Below the pieces are notes generated by a model that was not told the origin of the DNA, made no database searches, and saw only the letters and a program-made list of their open reading frames with translations. DNA of 64,000 nt from Jatrophihabitans sp. (lineage in GTDB: Bacteria > Actinomycetota > Actinomycetes > Mycobacteriales > Jatrophihabitantaceae), in the NCBI GenBank assembly GCA_035248685.1, contig DATFHF010000014.1:133-64132 (forward strand), written 5' to 3'. A program made the position numbers and the translations under genes. Positions within the stretch are counted from its first letter, which is position 1. Each line of letters starts with the position of its first letter. Shown here piece after piece: positions 41,640 to 45,156 of the stretch.

Positions 41640-42038
41640 ATGCGCCTGATGCGTCGTCCGATCACCGCATCCGCTCACTGCGACCTGCCGTGCGGGGTCT
41701 ACGACCCGGCCCAGGCTCGGATCGAGGCCGAATCGGTCAAGGCGATCCAGGAGAAGTATCAAGGCAACGAGGATCCGGCCTTCCGCACCCGGGCGATCCT
41801 GATCAAGGAGCAGCGAGCCGAACTCGTCAAGCACCACCTGTGGGTGCTCTGGACCGACTACTTCAAGCCGCCGCACTTCGAGAAGTACCCGCAGCTGCAC
41901 GAGCTGTTCAACAAGGCCACCAAGCAGGCCGGTGCCGCTGGCGGCAAGGGCTCGATGGATCCGGCGGACGGGCAGAAGCTGCTGGACCTGATCGCCGAGA
42001 TCGACACCATCTTCTGGGAGACCAAGAAGGCCGCCTGA
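41640..42038 (+). CDS. sodN: nickel-containing superoxide dismutase precursor
   Basis: ATG 41640 follows GGAGGAAACC. MRLMRRPITASA|HCDLPCGVYDPAQARIEAESV.. carries the Ni-hook HCDLPCG after a short pro-peptide. Confidence 0.95.
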   Translation: MRLMRRPITASAHCDLPCGVYDPAQARIEAESVKAIQEKYQGNEDPAFRTRAILIKEQRAELVKHHLWVLWTDYFKPPHFEKYPQLHELFNKATKQAGAAGGKGSMDPADGQKLLDLIAEIDTIFWETKKAA

Positions 42039-42073
42039 CGGGCGGAGTGGTCGGTAAACGCTGGCTTACCTGC

Positions 42074-42097
42074 CTACGGCCATTCGACATTGCGCAT
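42074..42097 (-). CDS. candidate mini-ORF A: MRNVEWP*
   Basis: ATG CGC AAT GTC GAA TGG CCG TAG on the minus strand. GGAGGTGA at 42104-42111 lies 6 nt upstream of the ATG. Confidence 0.45.
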   Translation of the reverse strand: MRNVEWP

Positions 42098-42111
42098 GTG
42101 AACTCACCTCC
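42074..42111. repeat. left arm of a 38-nt inverted repeat (SD + mini-ORF module)
   Basis: The reverse complement is identical to 43369-43406 at 35 of 38 positions. The differences are confined to codon 4 and the stop codon. Confidence 0.9.
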
Positions 42112-42211
42112 TCGGGCTGGCTGCCGATGATCGTGATCAGCCATCTGCACCGCGAGACGCATGTGACGAAGGTTGCTCTGGAGTGGCTGCCGCGAGCCTC
42201 CGCCTAGGTGG

Positions 42212-43336
42212 TCAGATCTCCGGTCGGAGCGGGTCAGGCGCAGCTTCCCTGGCGACCAGCTCGGCTTCGCAGATCGCTAGCAGGTCGTCGAGCCGATAGC
42301 CATCGCGGGGCTTGCCGGCAGCCGCGACGTTGCCGACGATGCCCTTAGTACGCAGTGCAGTCCGCAATCTCGCGGCCAGCGCATCGGCGCTGAGGGCTGG
42401 GCAGTCCACCAGCAGCATGCCGAGGCCGTCCGTTCCGAGGTAGCCGATGGCGTCGCAGCCAGCTTGCATCCGAGCTACCGCGCTGACCGCGACCGGATCC
42501 GCGGTGGTTATCCGGATGATGGATACGACGGGCAGCGCGGCAATTACCTCGGTCGCCGCGATCATCCAAGAGTCCTGCCCCATTGGGCGCACGAGAGCGT
42601 CGTCGGCCACAACTCGAAGACGAGTTCGGGTGATAGTGCGCTGAAGCCCGATCGCAGCCGGCAACGACAGCCACACCAGCATTCCAAGCCTGGCGTTGAC
42701 TACGAAGACGACGCCTACAGCTATGGCGAGGCAGCAGGCCTCCACTTGGTATGGACCCGGCTGCAACAGAGCCCGCGCTACCGACCGCTCGCCGGCAGCG
42801 AGCATCACGGCACCGACCGCGACCACGTGCGTGGCCGTGTAGAGCAGGGCCGCTACCGCAACCGCGGGCCACCAACCATCACCCGCTCCGGAATTGATCA
42901 CTGCGTGCGTGGCCGTCGCTGCCAGCACGGCTGCGGCGCTGCTGTAGACGTGTCGGTAGAGGTGCGCCCTACTGGCAACTTTTCGAGCGGGCCACTCGGC
43001 GACGGCACCCATTACAGCGACGATCCACGCCAGCGGAAGGGGAAGCATAACGGCCGCAGCGAAGCCCCATATCGCCAGCAAATTGCGGTATGTGATCGCT
43101 TCCGCGCCTTGGTGCAACGCGCGGCGCAGCCGCTCGACGCCACAGGTAAAGGCCGAATACGCAATACTCAGGGTGCCCAGCGCAAGGGTCAGCTCGATAT
43201 CCGAACGGCTGACCGGGTGCCAGAACAGCGCCGGGGCGACAGCGGCCGACAAGTCCACCGCCAGGATCAGCGCGATCGCAACAGGCGGTAGCCGCCAGAC
43301 CGGCCACTTTGCCGCTGCTCGGAGCACTGGTAGCAA
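42212..43336 (-). CDS. polytopic membrane protein with degenerate GGDEF-like C-terminal domain
   Basis: About 7-8 hydrophobic helices, then a cytoplasmic tail GCDAIGYLGTDGLGMLLVD..ALSADALAARLRTAL..LDDLLAICEAELVAREA. The tail resembles the second half of a GGDEF domain with GGDEF replaced by GTDGL. The start is TTG 43336 or GTG 43327. Confidence 0.65.
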   Translation of the reverse strand: MLPVLRAAAKWPVWRLPPVAIALILAVDLSAAVAPALFWHPVSRSDIELTLALGTLSIAYSAFTCGVERLRRALHQGAEAITYRNLLAIWGFAAAVMLPLPLAWIVAVMGAVAEWPARKVASRAHLYRHVYSSAAAVLAATATHAVINSGAGDGWWPAVAVAALLYTATHVVAVGAVMLAAGERSVARALLQPGPYQVEACCLAIAVGVVFVVNARLGMLVWLSLPAAIGLQRTITRTRLRVVADDALVRPMGQDSWMIAATEVIAALPVVSIIRITTADPVAVSAVARMQAGCDAIGYLGTDGLGMLLVDCPALSADALAARLRTALRTKGIVGNVAAAGKPRDGYRLDDLLAICEAELVAREAAPDPLRPEI

Positions 43337-43368
43337 CCCCTCTACAGACTGCTACTGCTGGGACGACG

Positions 43369-43406
43369 GGAGGTGAGTTCACATGCGCAATACCGAATGG
43401 CCGTAA
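43369..43406. repeat. right arm of a 38-nt inverted repeat (SD + mini-ORF module)
   Basis: GGAGGTGAGTTCACATGCGCAATACCGAATGGCCGTAA; see the left arm. Confidence 0.9.
43383..43406 (+). CDS. candidate mini-ORF B: MRNTEWP*
   Basis: ATG CGC AAT ACC GAA TGG CCG TAA. GGAGGTGA at 43369-43376 lies 6 nt upstream. Confidence 0.45.
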   Translation: MRNTEWP

Positions 43407-43496
43407 GCCGGCCGAGATGCCTTGTCGTGTTAGTCACGAACTGTACATAGCGCGATGCTGGCTGTCACGCCCATCGGCAAGCGCAACTGCTTGGTG

Positions 43497-43530
43497 CTAC
43501 CCCGGCCGGTTTCAGGCTCGGCCGGGGTAG
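43497..43530 (+). terminator. strong GC-rich hairpin (terminator-like, no U-tract)
   Basis: Perfect 12-bp stem CTACCCCGGCCG / CGGCCGGGGTAG with a 10-nt loop, about 90 nt downstream of mini-ORF B. Confidence 0.45.
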
Positions 43531-43824
43531 CGCCGGGAGCTGACCCTCATGTTGAGCGCACTCATTGTGGTAGCGGTGCCAAACATCGAAGGGAAGACTT
43601 GACCGCTGCAATTCGGTCCGCAAGGAGTTCACGAAACCCCGCAGGCCATCGTCCTACACCGGTGCACATCAGTCGCTCGCCCAGCAAATACGGGGCTAGA
43701 GCGCTCTAGGATCGAAATACAGAGACCGCAGAATGCCGCCCGTACTGGGAGACCAAGAAACTGCCTAGCGTCCGAGCCACTTCGACTGCTTGCCACCGTC
43801 AGGCCGCGATCGGAGGTGACATGG

Positions 43825-43848
43825 ATGCGTAATTACGAGTGGCCGTAG
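43825..43848 (+). CDS. candidate mini-ORF C: MRNYEWP*
   Basis: ATG CGT AAT TAC GAG TGG CCG TAG. GGAGGTGA at 43812-43819 lies 5 nt upstream. Confidence 0.45.
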   Translation: MRNYEWP

Positions 43849-43943
43849 GCCGCCACATCCCGGGAGGGCAGTACGAGGACGATCGCGTTATACATCTTTC
43901 TGCGGATGGCTACTACACGGACACGATCGGAGGTGACCCGAGA

Positions 43944-43967
43944 ATGCGTAATGCCGAGTGGCCGTAA
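43944..43967 (+). CDS. candidate mini-ORF D: MRNAEWP*
   Basis: ATG CGT AAT GCC GAG TGG CCG TAA. GGAGGTGA at 43929-43936 lies 7 nt upstream. Confidence 0.45.
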   Translation: MRNAEWP

Positions 43968-44079
43968 GCCACCACATCGCGTCCATGATGGATCGGCAAC
44001 ACCTCAGTGGTGTTAGTCGGGCCGGTCCCGGCCACCTCCGACCCAGCCCTGGCCGGTCGCGGCCGACTGTTATGTTGCG

Positions 44080-45156
44080 GTGGTGCCGGAATCCCACCCC
44101 GCTGCCCGGCCGCTGCCGGCGCTGGTCGTCGTCCGGCACGGCGAGACCGAATGGAGCCGATCCGGCCGGCATACCGGACGCAGCGACCTGCCGCTAACCG
44201 CGGCCGGCGAGCGGCAGGCGGTCGCCACCGGCGCGGTGCTGCACGCGTTGCTCGGCAATCGGGCGCCGGCGCTTGTGCTCAGTTCGCCGCGGCAGCGGGC
44301 CCGCCGTACCGCCGAGCTTTCCGGCTACCCAGCGGACGAGCTGACCGAAGACGCCGCCGAATGGGACTACGGCCAACTGGAGGGGCTTACCTCCGCCGAG
44401 ATCGGCGAACGGTATCCGGACTGGTCGATCTGGACCGGCCCGGTGCCTGGTGGCGAGGATGCCGACGCGGTCAGCACGCGGATCGATCGGCTGCTTCAAC
44501 GGGTGGCCGAGGCGGGTGGGCCGGTGTTGATCTTCTCGCACGGGCATGCCAGCCGCTGCCTGGCGGCCCGCTGGTTGGGCGAGCCGGTGAGCAGCGGACA
44601 GCACTACCGGCTGGATACCGGCGGCATCGGGGTCCTCGGCTTCGAGCACGACTGGCCGGTGATCCTGCAGTGGAACATCGATAGTGGGCCGAACGCCGAC
44701 GACCAAACTTCGACAGCCGGGGGGCAAGCCATGAGCGAGACGTTGATTGAAGATGCTGCCTCGACCGACGTCGTCGAGCTCACCGTGCCGGCCGACCCGG
44801 CCTATATCGCGGTGCTGCGGGCGGTCACCGCTTCGTTGTCTGCCCGGCGCGACTTCACCCTCGACGAGATCGATGACCTGCGGATCGCGGTGGACGAAGC
44901 CTGCGCGCTGCTGCTGCCGCACGCCCAGCCCGCCAGCCCGCTGTCGGCCGTCTTCGGCGGGACCGGCGACCAGCTCCAGGCGCAGGTCTCGATCGAGCTG
45001 ACCGACCATATCGAGCTGACCGACCATGATGCGATGCTGGACGAGACCAGCTTCGCTTGGATGGTGCTCACCGCGCTGACCGACTCGGTGACCAGCGCTG
45101 CCGCCGATGGTCGGCTGGCCCTCACCTTCACCAAGGCCCGGGGCGCCCGCAATTGA
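44080..45156 (+). CDS. histidine phosphatase (PGAM-like) domain reading through, without a stop, into an RsbW/UsfX-like anti-sigma-F domain
   Basis: The N-terminus LVVVRHGETEWSRSGRHTGRSDLPLT carries the RHG motif, with ..FSHGH.. later. No stop codon precedes the anti-sigma segment that begins at codon 218. Confidence 0.7.
   Translation: MVPESHPAARPLPALVVVRHGETEWSRSGRHTGRSDLPLTAAGERQAVATGAVLHALLGNRAPALVLSSPRQRARRTAELSGYPADELTEDAAEWDYGQLEGLTSAEIGERYPDWSIWTGPVPGGEDADAVSTRIDRLLQRVAEAGGPVLIFSHGHASRCLAARWLGEPVSSGQHYRLDTGGIGVLGFEHDWPVILQWNIDSGPNADDQTSTAGGQAMSETLIEDAASTDVVELTVPADPAYIAVLRAVTASLSARRDFTLDEIDDLRIAVDEACALLLPHAQPASPLSAVFGGTGDQLQAQVSIELTDHIELTDHDAMLDETSFAWMVLTALTDSVTSAAADGRLALTFTKARGARN
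44731..45156 (+). CDS. rsbW: anti-sigma-F factor (RsbW/UsfX-like), possible independent start
   Basis: MSETLIEDAASTDVVELTVPADPAYIAVLRAVTASLSARRDFTLDEIDDLRIAVDEACALLL .. SFAWMVLTALTDSV aligns by eye with mycobacterial UsfX/RsbW. It lies directly upstream of sigF with an overlapping stop/start. Confidence 0.7.
   Translation: MSETLIEDAASTDVVELTVPADPAYIAVLRAVTASLSARRDFTLDEIDDLRIAVDEACALLLPHAQPASPLSAVFGGTGDQLQAQVSIELTDHIELTDHDAMLDETSFAWMVLTALTDSVTSAAADGRLALTFTKARGARN
44992..45027 (+). repeat. perfect 18-bp tandem duplication inside rsbW (IELTDH x2)
   Basis: ATCGAGCTGACCGACCAT is repeated head-to-tail at 44992-45009 and 45010-45027, in frame. Confidence 0.95.

Follow-up and report, generated by a model that had tools for sequence, protein, structure and literature searches.

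A candidate family of five- to thirteen-codon genes coupled to a membrane GGDEF protein in actinobacteria

The window analyzed here is a 64,000-nucleotide (nt) stretch of contig DATFHF010000014.1 from Jatrophihabitans sp. (67% GC), and the subject of this report is a set of four seven-codon open reading frames (mini-ORFs) that lie on either side of a gene encoding a membrane protein with a GGDEF-like domain. Each mini-ORF follows its own Shine–Dalgarno (SD) octamer. All four copies, together with the GGDEF-like gene, occupy a strain-specific insertion downstream of sodN, in the order copy A, the 374-amino-acid (aa) membrane protein gene (−), copy B, a hairpin, copy C, and copy D. The features, in coordinates of the window, are listed below.

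42039 to ~44060: strain-specific insertion of ~2 kb, running from the sodN stop (42038) to the conserved His_Phos upstream region and holding the four copies and the GGDEF-like gene.
42074–42111 (−): copy A; SD GGAGGTGA at 42111–42104, 6 nt, then ATG to TAG at 42097–42074; MRNVEWP.
42212–43336 (−): membrane GGDEF-like gene; 374 aa from the first TTG, a GVG start at 43327 being possible.
43369–43406 (+): copy B; SD at 43369–43376, 6 nt, then ATG to TAA at 43383–43406; MRNTEWP.
43440–43468 (−): sigma-70-like promoter, GTGACA-17-TACAGT, aimed at the GGDEF-like gene.
43493–43534: GC-rich hairpin with 16-nt arms (94% complementary), closing the copy B unit.
43812–43848 (+): copy C, an orphan; SD at 43812–43819, 5 nt, then ATG to TAG at 43825–43848; MRNYEWP.
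43929–43967 (+): copy D, an orphan; SD at 43929–43936, 7 nt, then ATG to TAA at 43944–43967; MRNAEWP.

A preliminary description of this DNA had reported the four mini-ORFs, each behind an exact octamer at 5–7 nt, and both points are exact. Every module consists of GGAGGTGA, a spacer of 5–7 nt, and ATG CGY AAT NNC GAR TGG CCG TAR. A degenerate form of this module, with up to two mismatches allowed, matched the window four times, against 0.00 matches expected from 100 dinucleotide shuffles. The octamer itself occurs seven times (2.24 expected), and four of these seven occurrences are the SDs of the modules, at 5, 6, 6, and 7 nt from the ATG. The codon choices are atypical for the surrounding DNA, as had also been proposed for AAT, GAA, and CGT: in 44 long ORFs of the window with high GC3, AAT accounts for 14% of the Asn codons, GAA for 23% of the Glu codons, CGT for 6% of the Arg codons, and TAA for 9% of the stops. 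Copy A (ATGCGCAATGTCGAATGGCCGTAG, 42097..42074, −) lies downstream of the GGDEF-like gene as an orphan and forms the left arm (42069–42111) of a 43-nt inverted repeat (91%) around 1257 nt, the right arm of which (43369–43411) contains copy B. The latter is divergent from the start of the GGDEF-like gene at ~47 nt. Copies C and D are direct repeats of one another, and D ends 113 nt upstream of a His_Phos/RsbW fusion gene (start 44080). One cassette in the window is complete, comprising the GGDEF-like gene together with copy B, the promoter, and the hairpin, and the other three copies (A, C, and D) are orphan duplicates.

Related mini-ORFs were sought with two DNA patterns that were blind to proteins. 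The pattern GGAGG-N6-12-ATGCGNAAYNNNGARTGGCC, run against one genome per species (185,579 species), returned nine stretches, a number near our estimated chance expectation. Four were real, at one or two per genome, with a stop directly after Pro; a Jatrophihabitantaceae metagenome-assembled genome (MAG) held two of them, and an uncultured Actinomycetota chromosome and Kribbella sp. NBC_01505 held one each. The other five (L011, L014, and L016–L018) had no stop after codon 7, came from unrelated taxa, and were excluded. A metagenome scan in which codons 2–4 were left free returned 18 stretches, 10 of them real; those excluded were the antisense of a conserved ...DADIYGHSVP... coding region (L021, L022, and L034), a G-rich repeat (L028, L029, L036, and L037), and a stretch with an internal stop (L030). 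In these blind scans, related mini-ORFs were confined to Jatrophihabitans-like, Kribbella, and other actinobacterial contigs. The IMG/VR viral contigs gave 0 matches to the mini-ORF, no plasmid homolog of the GGDEF-like protein was found, and an origin in a mobile element or phage was dropped on these grounds.

The ending E-W-P-stop was preset by the search patterns in this DNA-first set, and independent support for it comes from copies in the flanks of the matches and from the protein-first loci described below. The flank copies went beyond what the patterns demanded (MGNAEWP, MRHTEWP, a GTG-start RNLEWP, MCNFEWP, and MQNAEWP) and also had TGA stops and CCC Pro codons. In the contig L035, ~14 mini-ORFs, each with its own SD, are packed into 1.2 kb; they include MRSYEWA, MRNYEWL, and MRGWEWG, vary at positions 3, 4, and 7, and comprise one copy without an ATG and one without a stop. 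This array (1580–2730, −) is built of ~300-nt super-repeats of three or four ORFs, each preceded by a conserved, −10-like tcgTATGATnattg box, and similar acgTATAAC and acgTATGAC boxes were observed near copies in L023 and L038. A cassette of the MLH[IA]EWP type (L025, 6390–7559) lies ~2 kb from dnaN, that is, near the chromosomal replication origin region. In L024, a remnant of the membrane protein gene precedes copy 2. Whole units duplicate and decay.

The coding statistics were taken from 34 intact seven-codon copies. Conservation per base, given codon by codon, was 999 983 687 438 995 999 998 987, with a three-nucleotide periodicity. In codon 2, the first two positions are fixed and the third is free (CGC 11, CGT 7, CGG 5, CGA 5), AAC/AAT, CAC/CAT, and GAA/GAG alternate synonymously, and TGG is invariant. 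The start is ATG in 33 copies and GTG in one, a stop stands at codon 8 in 34/34, and the spacing from the SD is 5–9 nt. The stops are TAA (21), TAG (9), and TGA (4), of which TGA is under-sampled because one search pattern required TAR; the TAA:TAG ratio of 21:9 compares with 4:15 in the long ORFs of the window. Two decayed copies have lost such features: the SD is missing and the Trp codon has changed from TGG to TAG in one (L032), and the ATG is missing in the other (L035). The synonymous variation, the retained starts and stops, and the decaying copies argue that translation or the encoded peptide is under selection, rather than a DNA repeat. The preliminary description had proposed selection on a peptide from the four copies in the window, and the larger set upholds this with its periodicity, kept starts and stops, strong SDs, and decayed copies that lose all of these.

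The part of the peptide that is conserved is smaller than the window suggests. The Trp is always zero or one residue from the stop codon. Pro is C-terminal in 30/34 seven-codon copies and absent from MRNNEW, MNNDW, ...TWN, and several array copies, in some of which L, G, or A takes its place. An aromatic residue (Y, F, or W) occupies position 4 in 15/34 copies, the remaining copies having A, T, V, I, L, or N there, and the length is seven codons in the window and 5–13 codons in other lineages. On the evidence of the protein-first mini-ORF sequences, the conserved core is [N/H]-x-[E/D/T]-W, ending at the C-terminus or one residue short of it, and the Pro-stop that had prompted an analogy with TnaC is lineage-specific. 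This core is kept across the Propionibacteriales, the Pseudonocardiales, and the Jatrophihabitans-like lineages, whose flanking sequences are unalignable.

The mini-ORFs have a constant neighbor. In the DNA-first set, a homolog of the 374-aa protein adjoins the first mini-ORF, in divergent orientation, in all 14 loci with enough flank (tblastn; the window, L012, L013, L015, L019/L038, L020, L023–L027, L031, L032, and L035; L033 was too short to judge). When loci were instead chosen by membership of the protein family, a divergent mini-ORF was present at 6/9, as listed here.

L038: uncultured Actinomycetota chromosome, same region as L019; three copies.
L039: same chromosome as L038, second paralog; MRNYVWG.
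L040: ENA metagenome contig of 1.26 Mb; MRTYEWL.
L042: K. qitaiheensis; MRNNEW.
L045: K. sandramycini; MNNDW.
L043: Amycolatopsis sp. RTGN1; two tandem MRNNTWRRNNTWN ORFs.
L041: Promicromonospora; no mini-ORF.
L044: Pseudonocardiaceae MAG; no mini-ORF.
L046: ENA metagenome contig, taxon unknown; no mini-ORF.

The two Amycolatopsis ORFs are identical in sequence, although their flanks have diverged and their starts are ATG and GTG, respectively, and the ORF carries an internal duplication, RNNTW-RRNNTW-N. Wherever a protein-first Kribbella or Amycolatopsis locus carries a mini-ORF (3/3), an MFS_3 transporter gene (orthologs with 51–66% identity) stands just past the mini-ORF in convergent orientation. 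At the loci without a mini-ORF, no MFS_3 gene was found in L041 or L044 (Pfam gene lists and tblastn) or in L046 (gene list only). The preliminary description was right that A and B flank the GGDEF-like gene, but it missed the divergent pairing, which is the key feature. By this synteny, the mini-ORFs are genetically coupled to one membrane GGDEF family, and we consider it very probable that they are translated micro-genes that are subject to peptide-level selection and coupled to that family.

A DNA repeat or a recombination scar without function, in which an SD and an ORF occur by accident, would account for copies that arise as whole-unit duplications (as with the gene remnant in L024), for the A/B inverted repeat and a 15-nt direct repeat at the insertion, and for the decay of some copies. 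It does not account for codon-periodic variation, for the kept starts and stops, or for a peptide core shared across orders between unalignable flanks. The notion of a small dispersed intergenic repeat likewise gave way before the genome scan, in which there were only one or two matching stretches per genome, always beside one gene family. Structured RNA was no better a candidate. The sole Rfam match in the 64-kb window was a tRNA gene (2817–2888); nothing else was found at the gathering threshold in the whole window, or at E ≤ 10 in 41900–44300. L035 and L039 seemed to show covariation in a hairpin around the stop codon, but this hairpin did not rise above a permutation control (53/500). Pairing of the mini-ORF SD with a downstream anti-SD-like element (suggested by alifold; CCACCTCCGA downstream of D) was dropped because the RNAduplex z-scores averaged 0.04 over 39 copies. 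A neutral repeat is very unlikely.

The partner protein has ~8 predicted transmembrane (TM) helices and a C-terminal alpha/beta domain (AlphaFold2 model, pLDDT 87). Foldseek matched it to many GGDEF domains with a probability of 1.0 and a TM-score to the target of 0.55–0.65, and the best full-length match was the membrane cyclase ImcA (8wcn), to which the TM domain has only a low TM-score. The 374-aa protein of the window had no match in Pfam, GGDEF included, nor is there a Pfam model for its TM domain. Its GGDEF domain, shortened to ~115 aa, has lost the GG[DE]EF motif, the aligned region reading G-T-D-G-L; this fold and the missing motif agree with the degenerate-GGDEF membrane protein that had been proposed between A and B. 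The Kribbella homolog and those in L025, L027, and L031 have a canonical GGEEF, and Pfam GGDEF (PF00990) matches the Kribbella and L025 homologs with E values of 7e-46 and 5e-39. The TM domains of the window and Kribbella proteins are homologous (E value 4e-14), and the L025, L027, and L031 homologs share the TM domain of the window protein. The GGDEF domain is thus predicted to be catalytically degenerate in the Jatrophihabitans-like lineage and canonical in Kribbella and a third lineage. Close homologs of the window protein number 117; they come almost entirely from Jatrophihabitans-like MAGs and soil metagenomes, and a single genome encodes several paralogs. The TM-domain family as a whole is small (138 clusters among 1.84 billion representative proteins) and falls into two length classes. 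The Kribbella cyclases share a conserved, arginine-rich MPSIRHWRP[RK]RRRRRE... extension (L013, 329–400; L042, ~1915–2003) that is in frame between species, and they probably start there, upstream of the annotated start in K. qitaiheensis.

The region between the two divergent genes has a recurrent layout. The sigma-70-like promoter of the window is the only such site in 41950–44150. Its hexamers are kept, with variable spacer sequence, in L012, L015, L024, L026, L032, and L038–L040, and a conserved block of ~60 nt 3′ of first copies is this promoter on the opposite strand. Its position (43440–43468) places copy B antisense within the ~100-nt 5′ untranslated region (UTR) of the GGDEF-like gene. 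In Kribbella, an equivalent promoter, [G/A]TGACA-N17/18-TAC[T/G]CT, was read directly from the sequence between the two genes, so the antisense overlap is not universal. In homologous units, the pairing of the hairpin that closes the B unit is maintained by compensatory changes, and this hairpin is probably a terminator or insulator. A palindrome, (A)TTCTGCAGAA(T), is conserved between the SD of the GGDEF-like gene and that of the mini-ORF in L012, L015, L024, L026, L032, and L038, and its version in the window (~43340–43362) is degenerate (CTCTACAGAC); it is a candidate operator for a dimeric regulator common to both divergent units. The promoter of the GGDEF-like gene lies outside the A/B inverted repeat, and recombination between the two arms would turn the gene away from its promoter, a possible on/off switch. 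Among the loci compared, only the window showed a copy A.

This layout favors the main rival to a peptide function, in which a translated mini-ORF transcript ending at the hairpin controls the divergent GGDEF gene through its overlap with the promoter and 5′ UTR, by transcriptional interference or an RNA duplex, while translation of the mini-ORF, possibly with the nascent E-W peptide, sets RNA stability or escape from Rho. All 11 Jatrophihabitans-type cassettes (11/11) carry the promoter block [G/A]TGACA-N17/18-TAC[A/T]GT opposite the mini-ORF and aimed at the GGDEF-like gene, so that the mini-ORF is antisense to the ~100-nt 5′ UTR at a fixed distance; the hairpin with its compensatory changes and the palindrome TTCTGCAGAA fit such a regulator as well. 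In Kribbella, however, the mini-ORF lies outside the 5′ UTR. Nor would interference explain why the amino-acid sequence is conserved across orders, why orphans and 14-copy arrays stay intact well away from any GGDEF promoter, or why the Amycolatopsis peptide has an internal duplication. A search for conserved structure in the 5′ UTR antisense to the mini-ORF gave no convincing consensus, and SD:anti-SD pairing was not significant, as noted above. We regard this explanation as unlikely on balance, while taking it seriously.

The surroundings of the insertion bear on whether the copies act on the genes that follow them. L003, an ENA soil-metagenome contig, is identical to the window, and nine further contigs (L001, L002, and L004–L010) have the same gene order and encode an identical WhiB (~4 kb away in the window). 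None of these nine syntenic contigs carries a mini-ORF copy, even at four substitutions, and in L005, L006, L008, and L009 the sodN stop is separated from the His-phosphatase gene by ~100 nt. Because all copies lie inside the 2-kb strain-specific insertion, C and D came to stand upstream of the sigF operon by a recent accident in this strain, and their placement is incidental rather than a conserved regulatory arrangement. The intergenic region in question (42039–44079 in the window) is a hot spot of variable cargo among these close relatives: L002, L004, and L007 carry a TacA-like antitoxin and GNAT toxin pair there, and L010 carries a LysM protein and an unknown gene. A perfect 15-nt direct repeat, CTGGGAGACCAAGAA, from the 3′ end of sodN occurs at 42014–42028 and 43745–43759, bracketing ~1.7 kb that holds copy A, the GGDEF-like gene, and copy B, and its second copy runs into a diverged pseudo-end of sodN (...aaactgcctag). 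The repeat and the pseudo-end suggest that the cassette arrived by recombination at the sodN terminus, beside pre-existing copies C and D. Downstream, a single 358-aa ORF (44080–45156; Pfam) joins a His_Phos_1 domain to an RsbW-like HATPase_c_2 anti-sigma domain. These domains are encoded by separate genes in L001, L008, and L010, rsbW and sigF are both absent from L002, L004–L007, and L009, and the fusion may be either genuine or an artefact of a frameshift or of the assembly.

The preliminary description had likened C and D to a TnaC-like Pro-stop leader of the sigF operon, that is, a cis-acting arrest peptide on which a pause at E-W-P-stop, possibly ligand-dependent, would control co-directional genes, here those for the His-phosphatase, RsbW, and SigF. 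Termination and the formation of peptide bonds proceed slowly in Pro-stop and W-P contexts. C and D precede the operon by 113–255 nt, L024 is organized in the same way, MLH[IA]EWP copies precede an alpha/beta-hydrolase gene by 50–100 nt in three contigs, and the Trp is always zero or one residue before the stop. This suggestion is not supported by the syntenic relatives, which have the same operon without a copy. The downstream genes vary by locus (a lipoprotein gene, a hydrolase gene, a convergent MFS gene, or only a terminator hairpin), and the only conserved neighbor is the divergent gene. Furthermore, Pro is missing in the Kribbella and Amycolatopsis peptides (MRNNEW, MNNDW, and ...TWN) and gives way to L, G, or A in many array copies; TAA, the most efficient stop, is preferred; arrays of 14 leaders would be without precedent; and the stop-codon hairpin was not significant. 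As far as these sequences can tell, an arrest leader is improbable.

Also weighed in the preliminary description was a minimal precursor of a peptide made by the ribosome and modified after translation (RiPP), biarylitide-like, in which residues such as Y, F, or W at position 4 and W at position 6 would be cross-linked or otherwise tailored and tandem precursor genes would supply diversity. The five-codon biarylitide genes (PMC12002111, PMC13417212) demonstrate that genes this small occur. Multiple tandem precursor-like genes with a hypervariable position are found here as well, many copies have aromatic residues at i and i+2 (YEW, FEW, and WEW), and the N-terminal MR recalls MRYYH. The idea is not supported, for lack of an enzyme: within 10 kb, no tailoring enzyme, whether a cytochrome P450, a radical-SAM enzyme, or another, is conserved, the Pfam lists of called genes in L003 (identical to the window) and L038–L040 contain no P450 within that distance, the ORFs around the modules in the window encode SodN, the GGDEF-like protein, and His_Phos/RsbW/SigF, and the neighbors other than the GGDEF gene vary by locus. 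Position 4 is, in addition, often A, T, V, I, or N, and the Kribbella peptides (NNEW and NNDW) hold a single aromatic residue. We therefore judge a RiPP precursor decidedly improbable; both it and the arrest leader lack defining features of their class.

The reading that we prefer, tentatively and at somewhat less than an even chance, is that the mini-ORF is translated directly into a peptide that is the cognate signal or a regulatory ligand of the GGDEF protein. A micro-gene with its own near-perfect ribosome-binding site would yield a short [N/H]-x-[E/D/T]-W peptide, in quantity to judge by the strong SD, ATG start, TAA stop, and tandem arrays. The adjacent MFS_3 transporter, where present (Kribbella and Amycolatopsis), would export the peptide, and the membrane domain of the sensor would read it out, such that the peptide would act as the cognate signal or regulatory ligand of the divergently encoded cyclic di-GMP (c-di-GMP) signaling protein. 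We infer a peptide product from the high-expression signals, the variable tandem arrays, the Amycolatopsis duplication, the cross-order peptide conservation, and the syntenic exporter-type MFS protein. It is conceivable, though doubtful, that leaderless, unprocessed peptides of 5–7 residues are a new class of dedicated ligands for c-di-GMP signaling proteins, each membrane GGDEF sensor paralog carrying its own micro-gene or array and the peptide acting either as an autoinducer after its export or as an effector in the cytoplasm, nascent or free. In a bolder variant, the nascent peptide, which contains R, E, and W, may sense c-di-GMP or GTP on the ribosome.

Several points weigh against the peptide as a ligand. 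Translation is deduced from the DNA sequence alone. A free peptide of 5–7 residues that is neither modified nor equipped with an export signal is unusual and can be expected to turn over quickly in the cytoplasm. First copies of the Jatrophihabitans lineage are antisense in the GGDEF 5′ UTR at a fixed ~45–60 nt, a geometry that hints at an RNA-level or transcriptional role instead of, or besides, that of a peptide, and no promoter on the mini-ORF strand was identified by scan or by conservation. No MFS_3 ortholog was found near Jatrophihabitans-type cassettes or elsewhere in the window, and three family members (L041, L044, and L046) have no mini-ORF. Finally, with E-W-P-stop preset by the patterns, the flank copies and protein-first loci are the only independent support for that ending.

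Genes of 5–7 codons are invisible to annotation, and very few functional examples are known. In the present case, at least three actinobacterial lineages show clear signs that the peptide is under selection, and there is an unambiguous genetic partner, a small family of membrane GGDEF proteins. If the peptide is indeed an input or regulator of this protein, the two would be the first pair of a micro-peptide and a c-di-GMP sensor, linking peptide signaling to c-di-GMP in actinobacteria and offering a testable handle on the control of orphan diguanylate cyclase (DGC) sensor domains. This is directly testable because cultivable Kribbella and Amycolatopsis strains carry the cassette. The incidental nature of the sigF-operon context, for its part, guards against a wrong regulatory annotation.

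Comparison with known systems sets the family apart. We know of no DGC that is paired with a dedicated micro-peptide gene, and literature searches for a pairing of GGDEF and small-ORF genes or for this peptide returned nothing relevant, which agrees, together with the absence of Rfam and Pfam matches, with the earlier impression that the motif matches no described family. Membrane DGCs with MASE-like sensor domains, such as ImcA (PDB 8wcn), resemble the partner protein in having a polytopic N-terminal domain and a C-terminal GGDEF domain, but the TM domain of the partner has no Pfam model and only a low TM-score to ImcA, and the GGDEF domain of the window lineage is shortened and lacks GG[DE]EF. 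In the Phr–Rap, SHP–Rgg, PapR–PlcR, and ComS–ComR systems, as here (14/14 DNA-first and 6/9 protein-first loci), the peptide gene adjoins the sensor gene, and shp and rgg are often divergent. Their mature signals have 5–8 residues, paralogous cassettes with variable peptide positions occur within a genome, and XIP-type signals are Trp-rich. However, those signals are cut from precursors of 20–60 aa with export and processing signals, imported by Opp, and sensed by cytoplasmic tetratricopeptide-repeat (TPR) regulators, whereas the ORFs described here have 5–13 codons and no signal sequence, the candidate sensor is a polytopic membrane GGDEF protein, and only some lineages have the sole candidate exporter, an MFS_3 pump.

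Very short ORFs with strong SDs are also typical of the TnaC, SpeFL, and Erm/Cat leaders and of regulatory minigenes such as lambda bar, axe-txe, and LEE1 (PMC8708949, PMC3262186). The window lineage shares with the TnaC type the Trp and Pro-stop context and the location of some copies upstream of co-directional genes, but its only conserved neighbor is on the opposite strand, Pro is not kept across lineages, no conserved attenuator structure was found, and the copies form long arrays and stand-alone units ending in a terminator hairpin. The biarylitide precursor genes (bytA; five codons, of the MRYYH type, with the P450 BytO; PMC12002111) are, like those described here, actinobacterial genes of 5–7 codons that are missed by annotation, have their own SD, often begin with M-R, carry aromatic residues near the C-terminus, and are defined by linkage to one partner gene. 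They differ in that the partner here is a membrane GGDEF signaling protein rather than a cytochrome P450, that no tailoring enzyme is conserved nearby, that the core is N-x-[E/D/T]-W rather than aromatic-x-aromatic, and that tandem arrays reach 14 copies. The family belongs to neither the biarylitide micro-genes, the Gram-positive peptide/receptor cassettes, nor the regulatory minigenes, and constitutes an undescribed family of ultra-short peptide genes, each with a dedicated partner gene.

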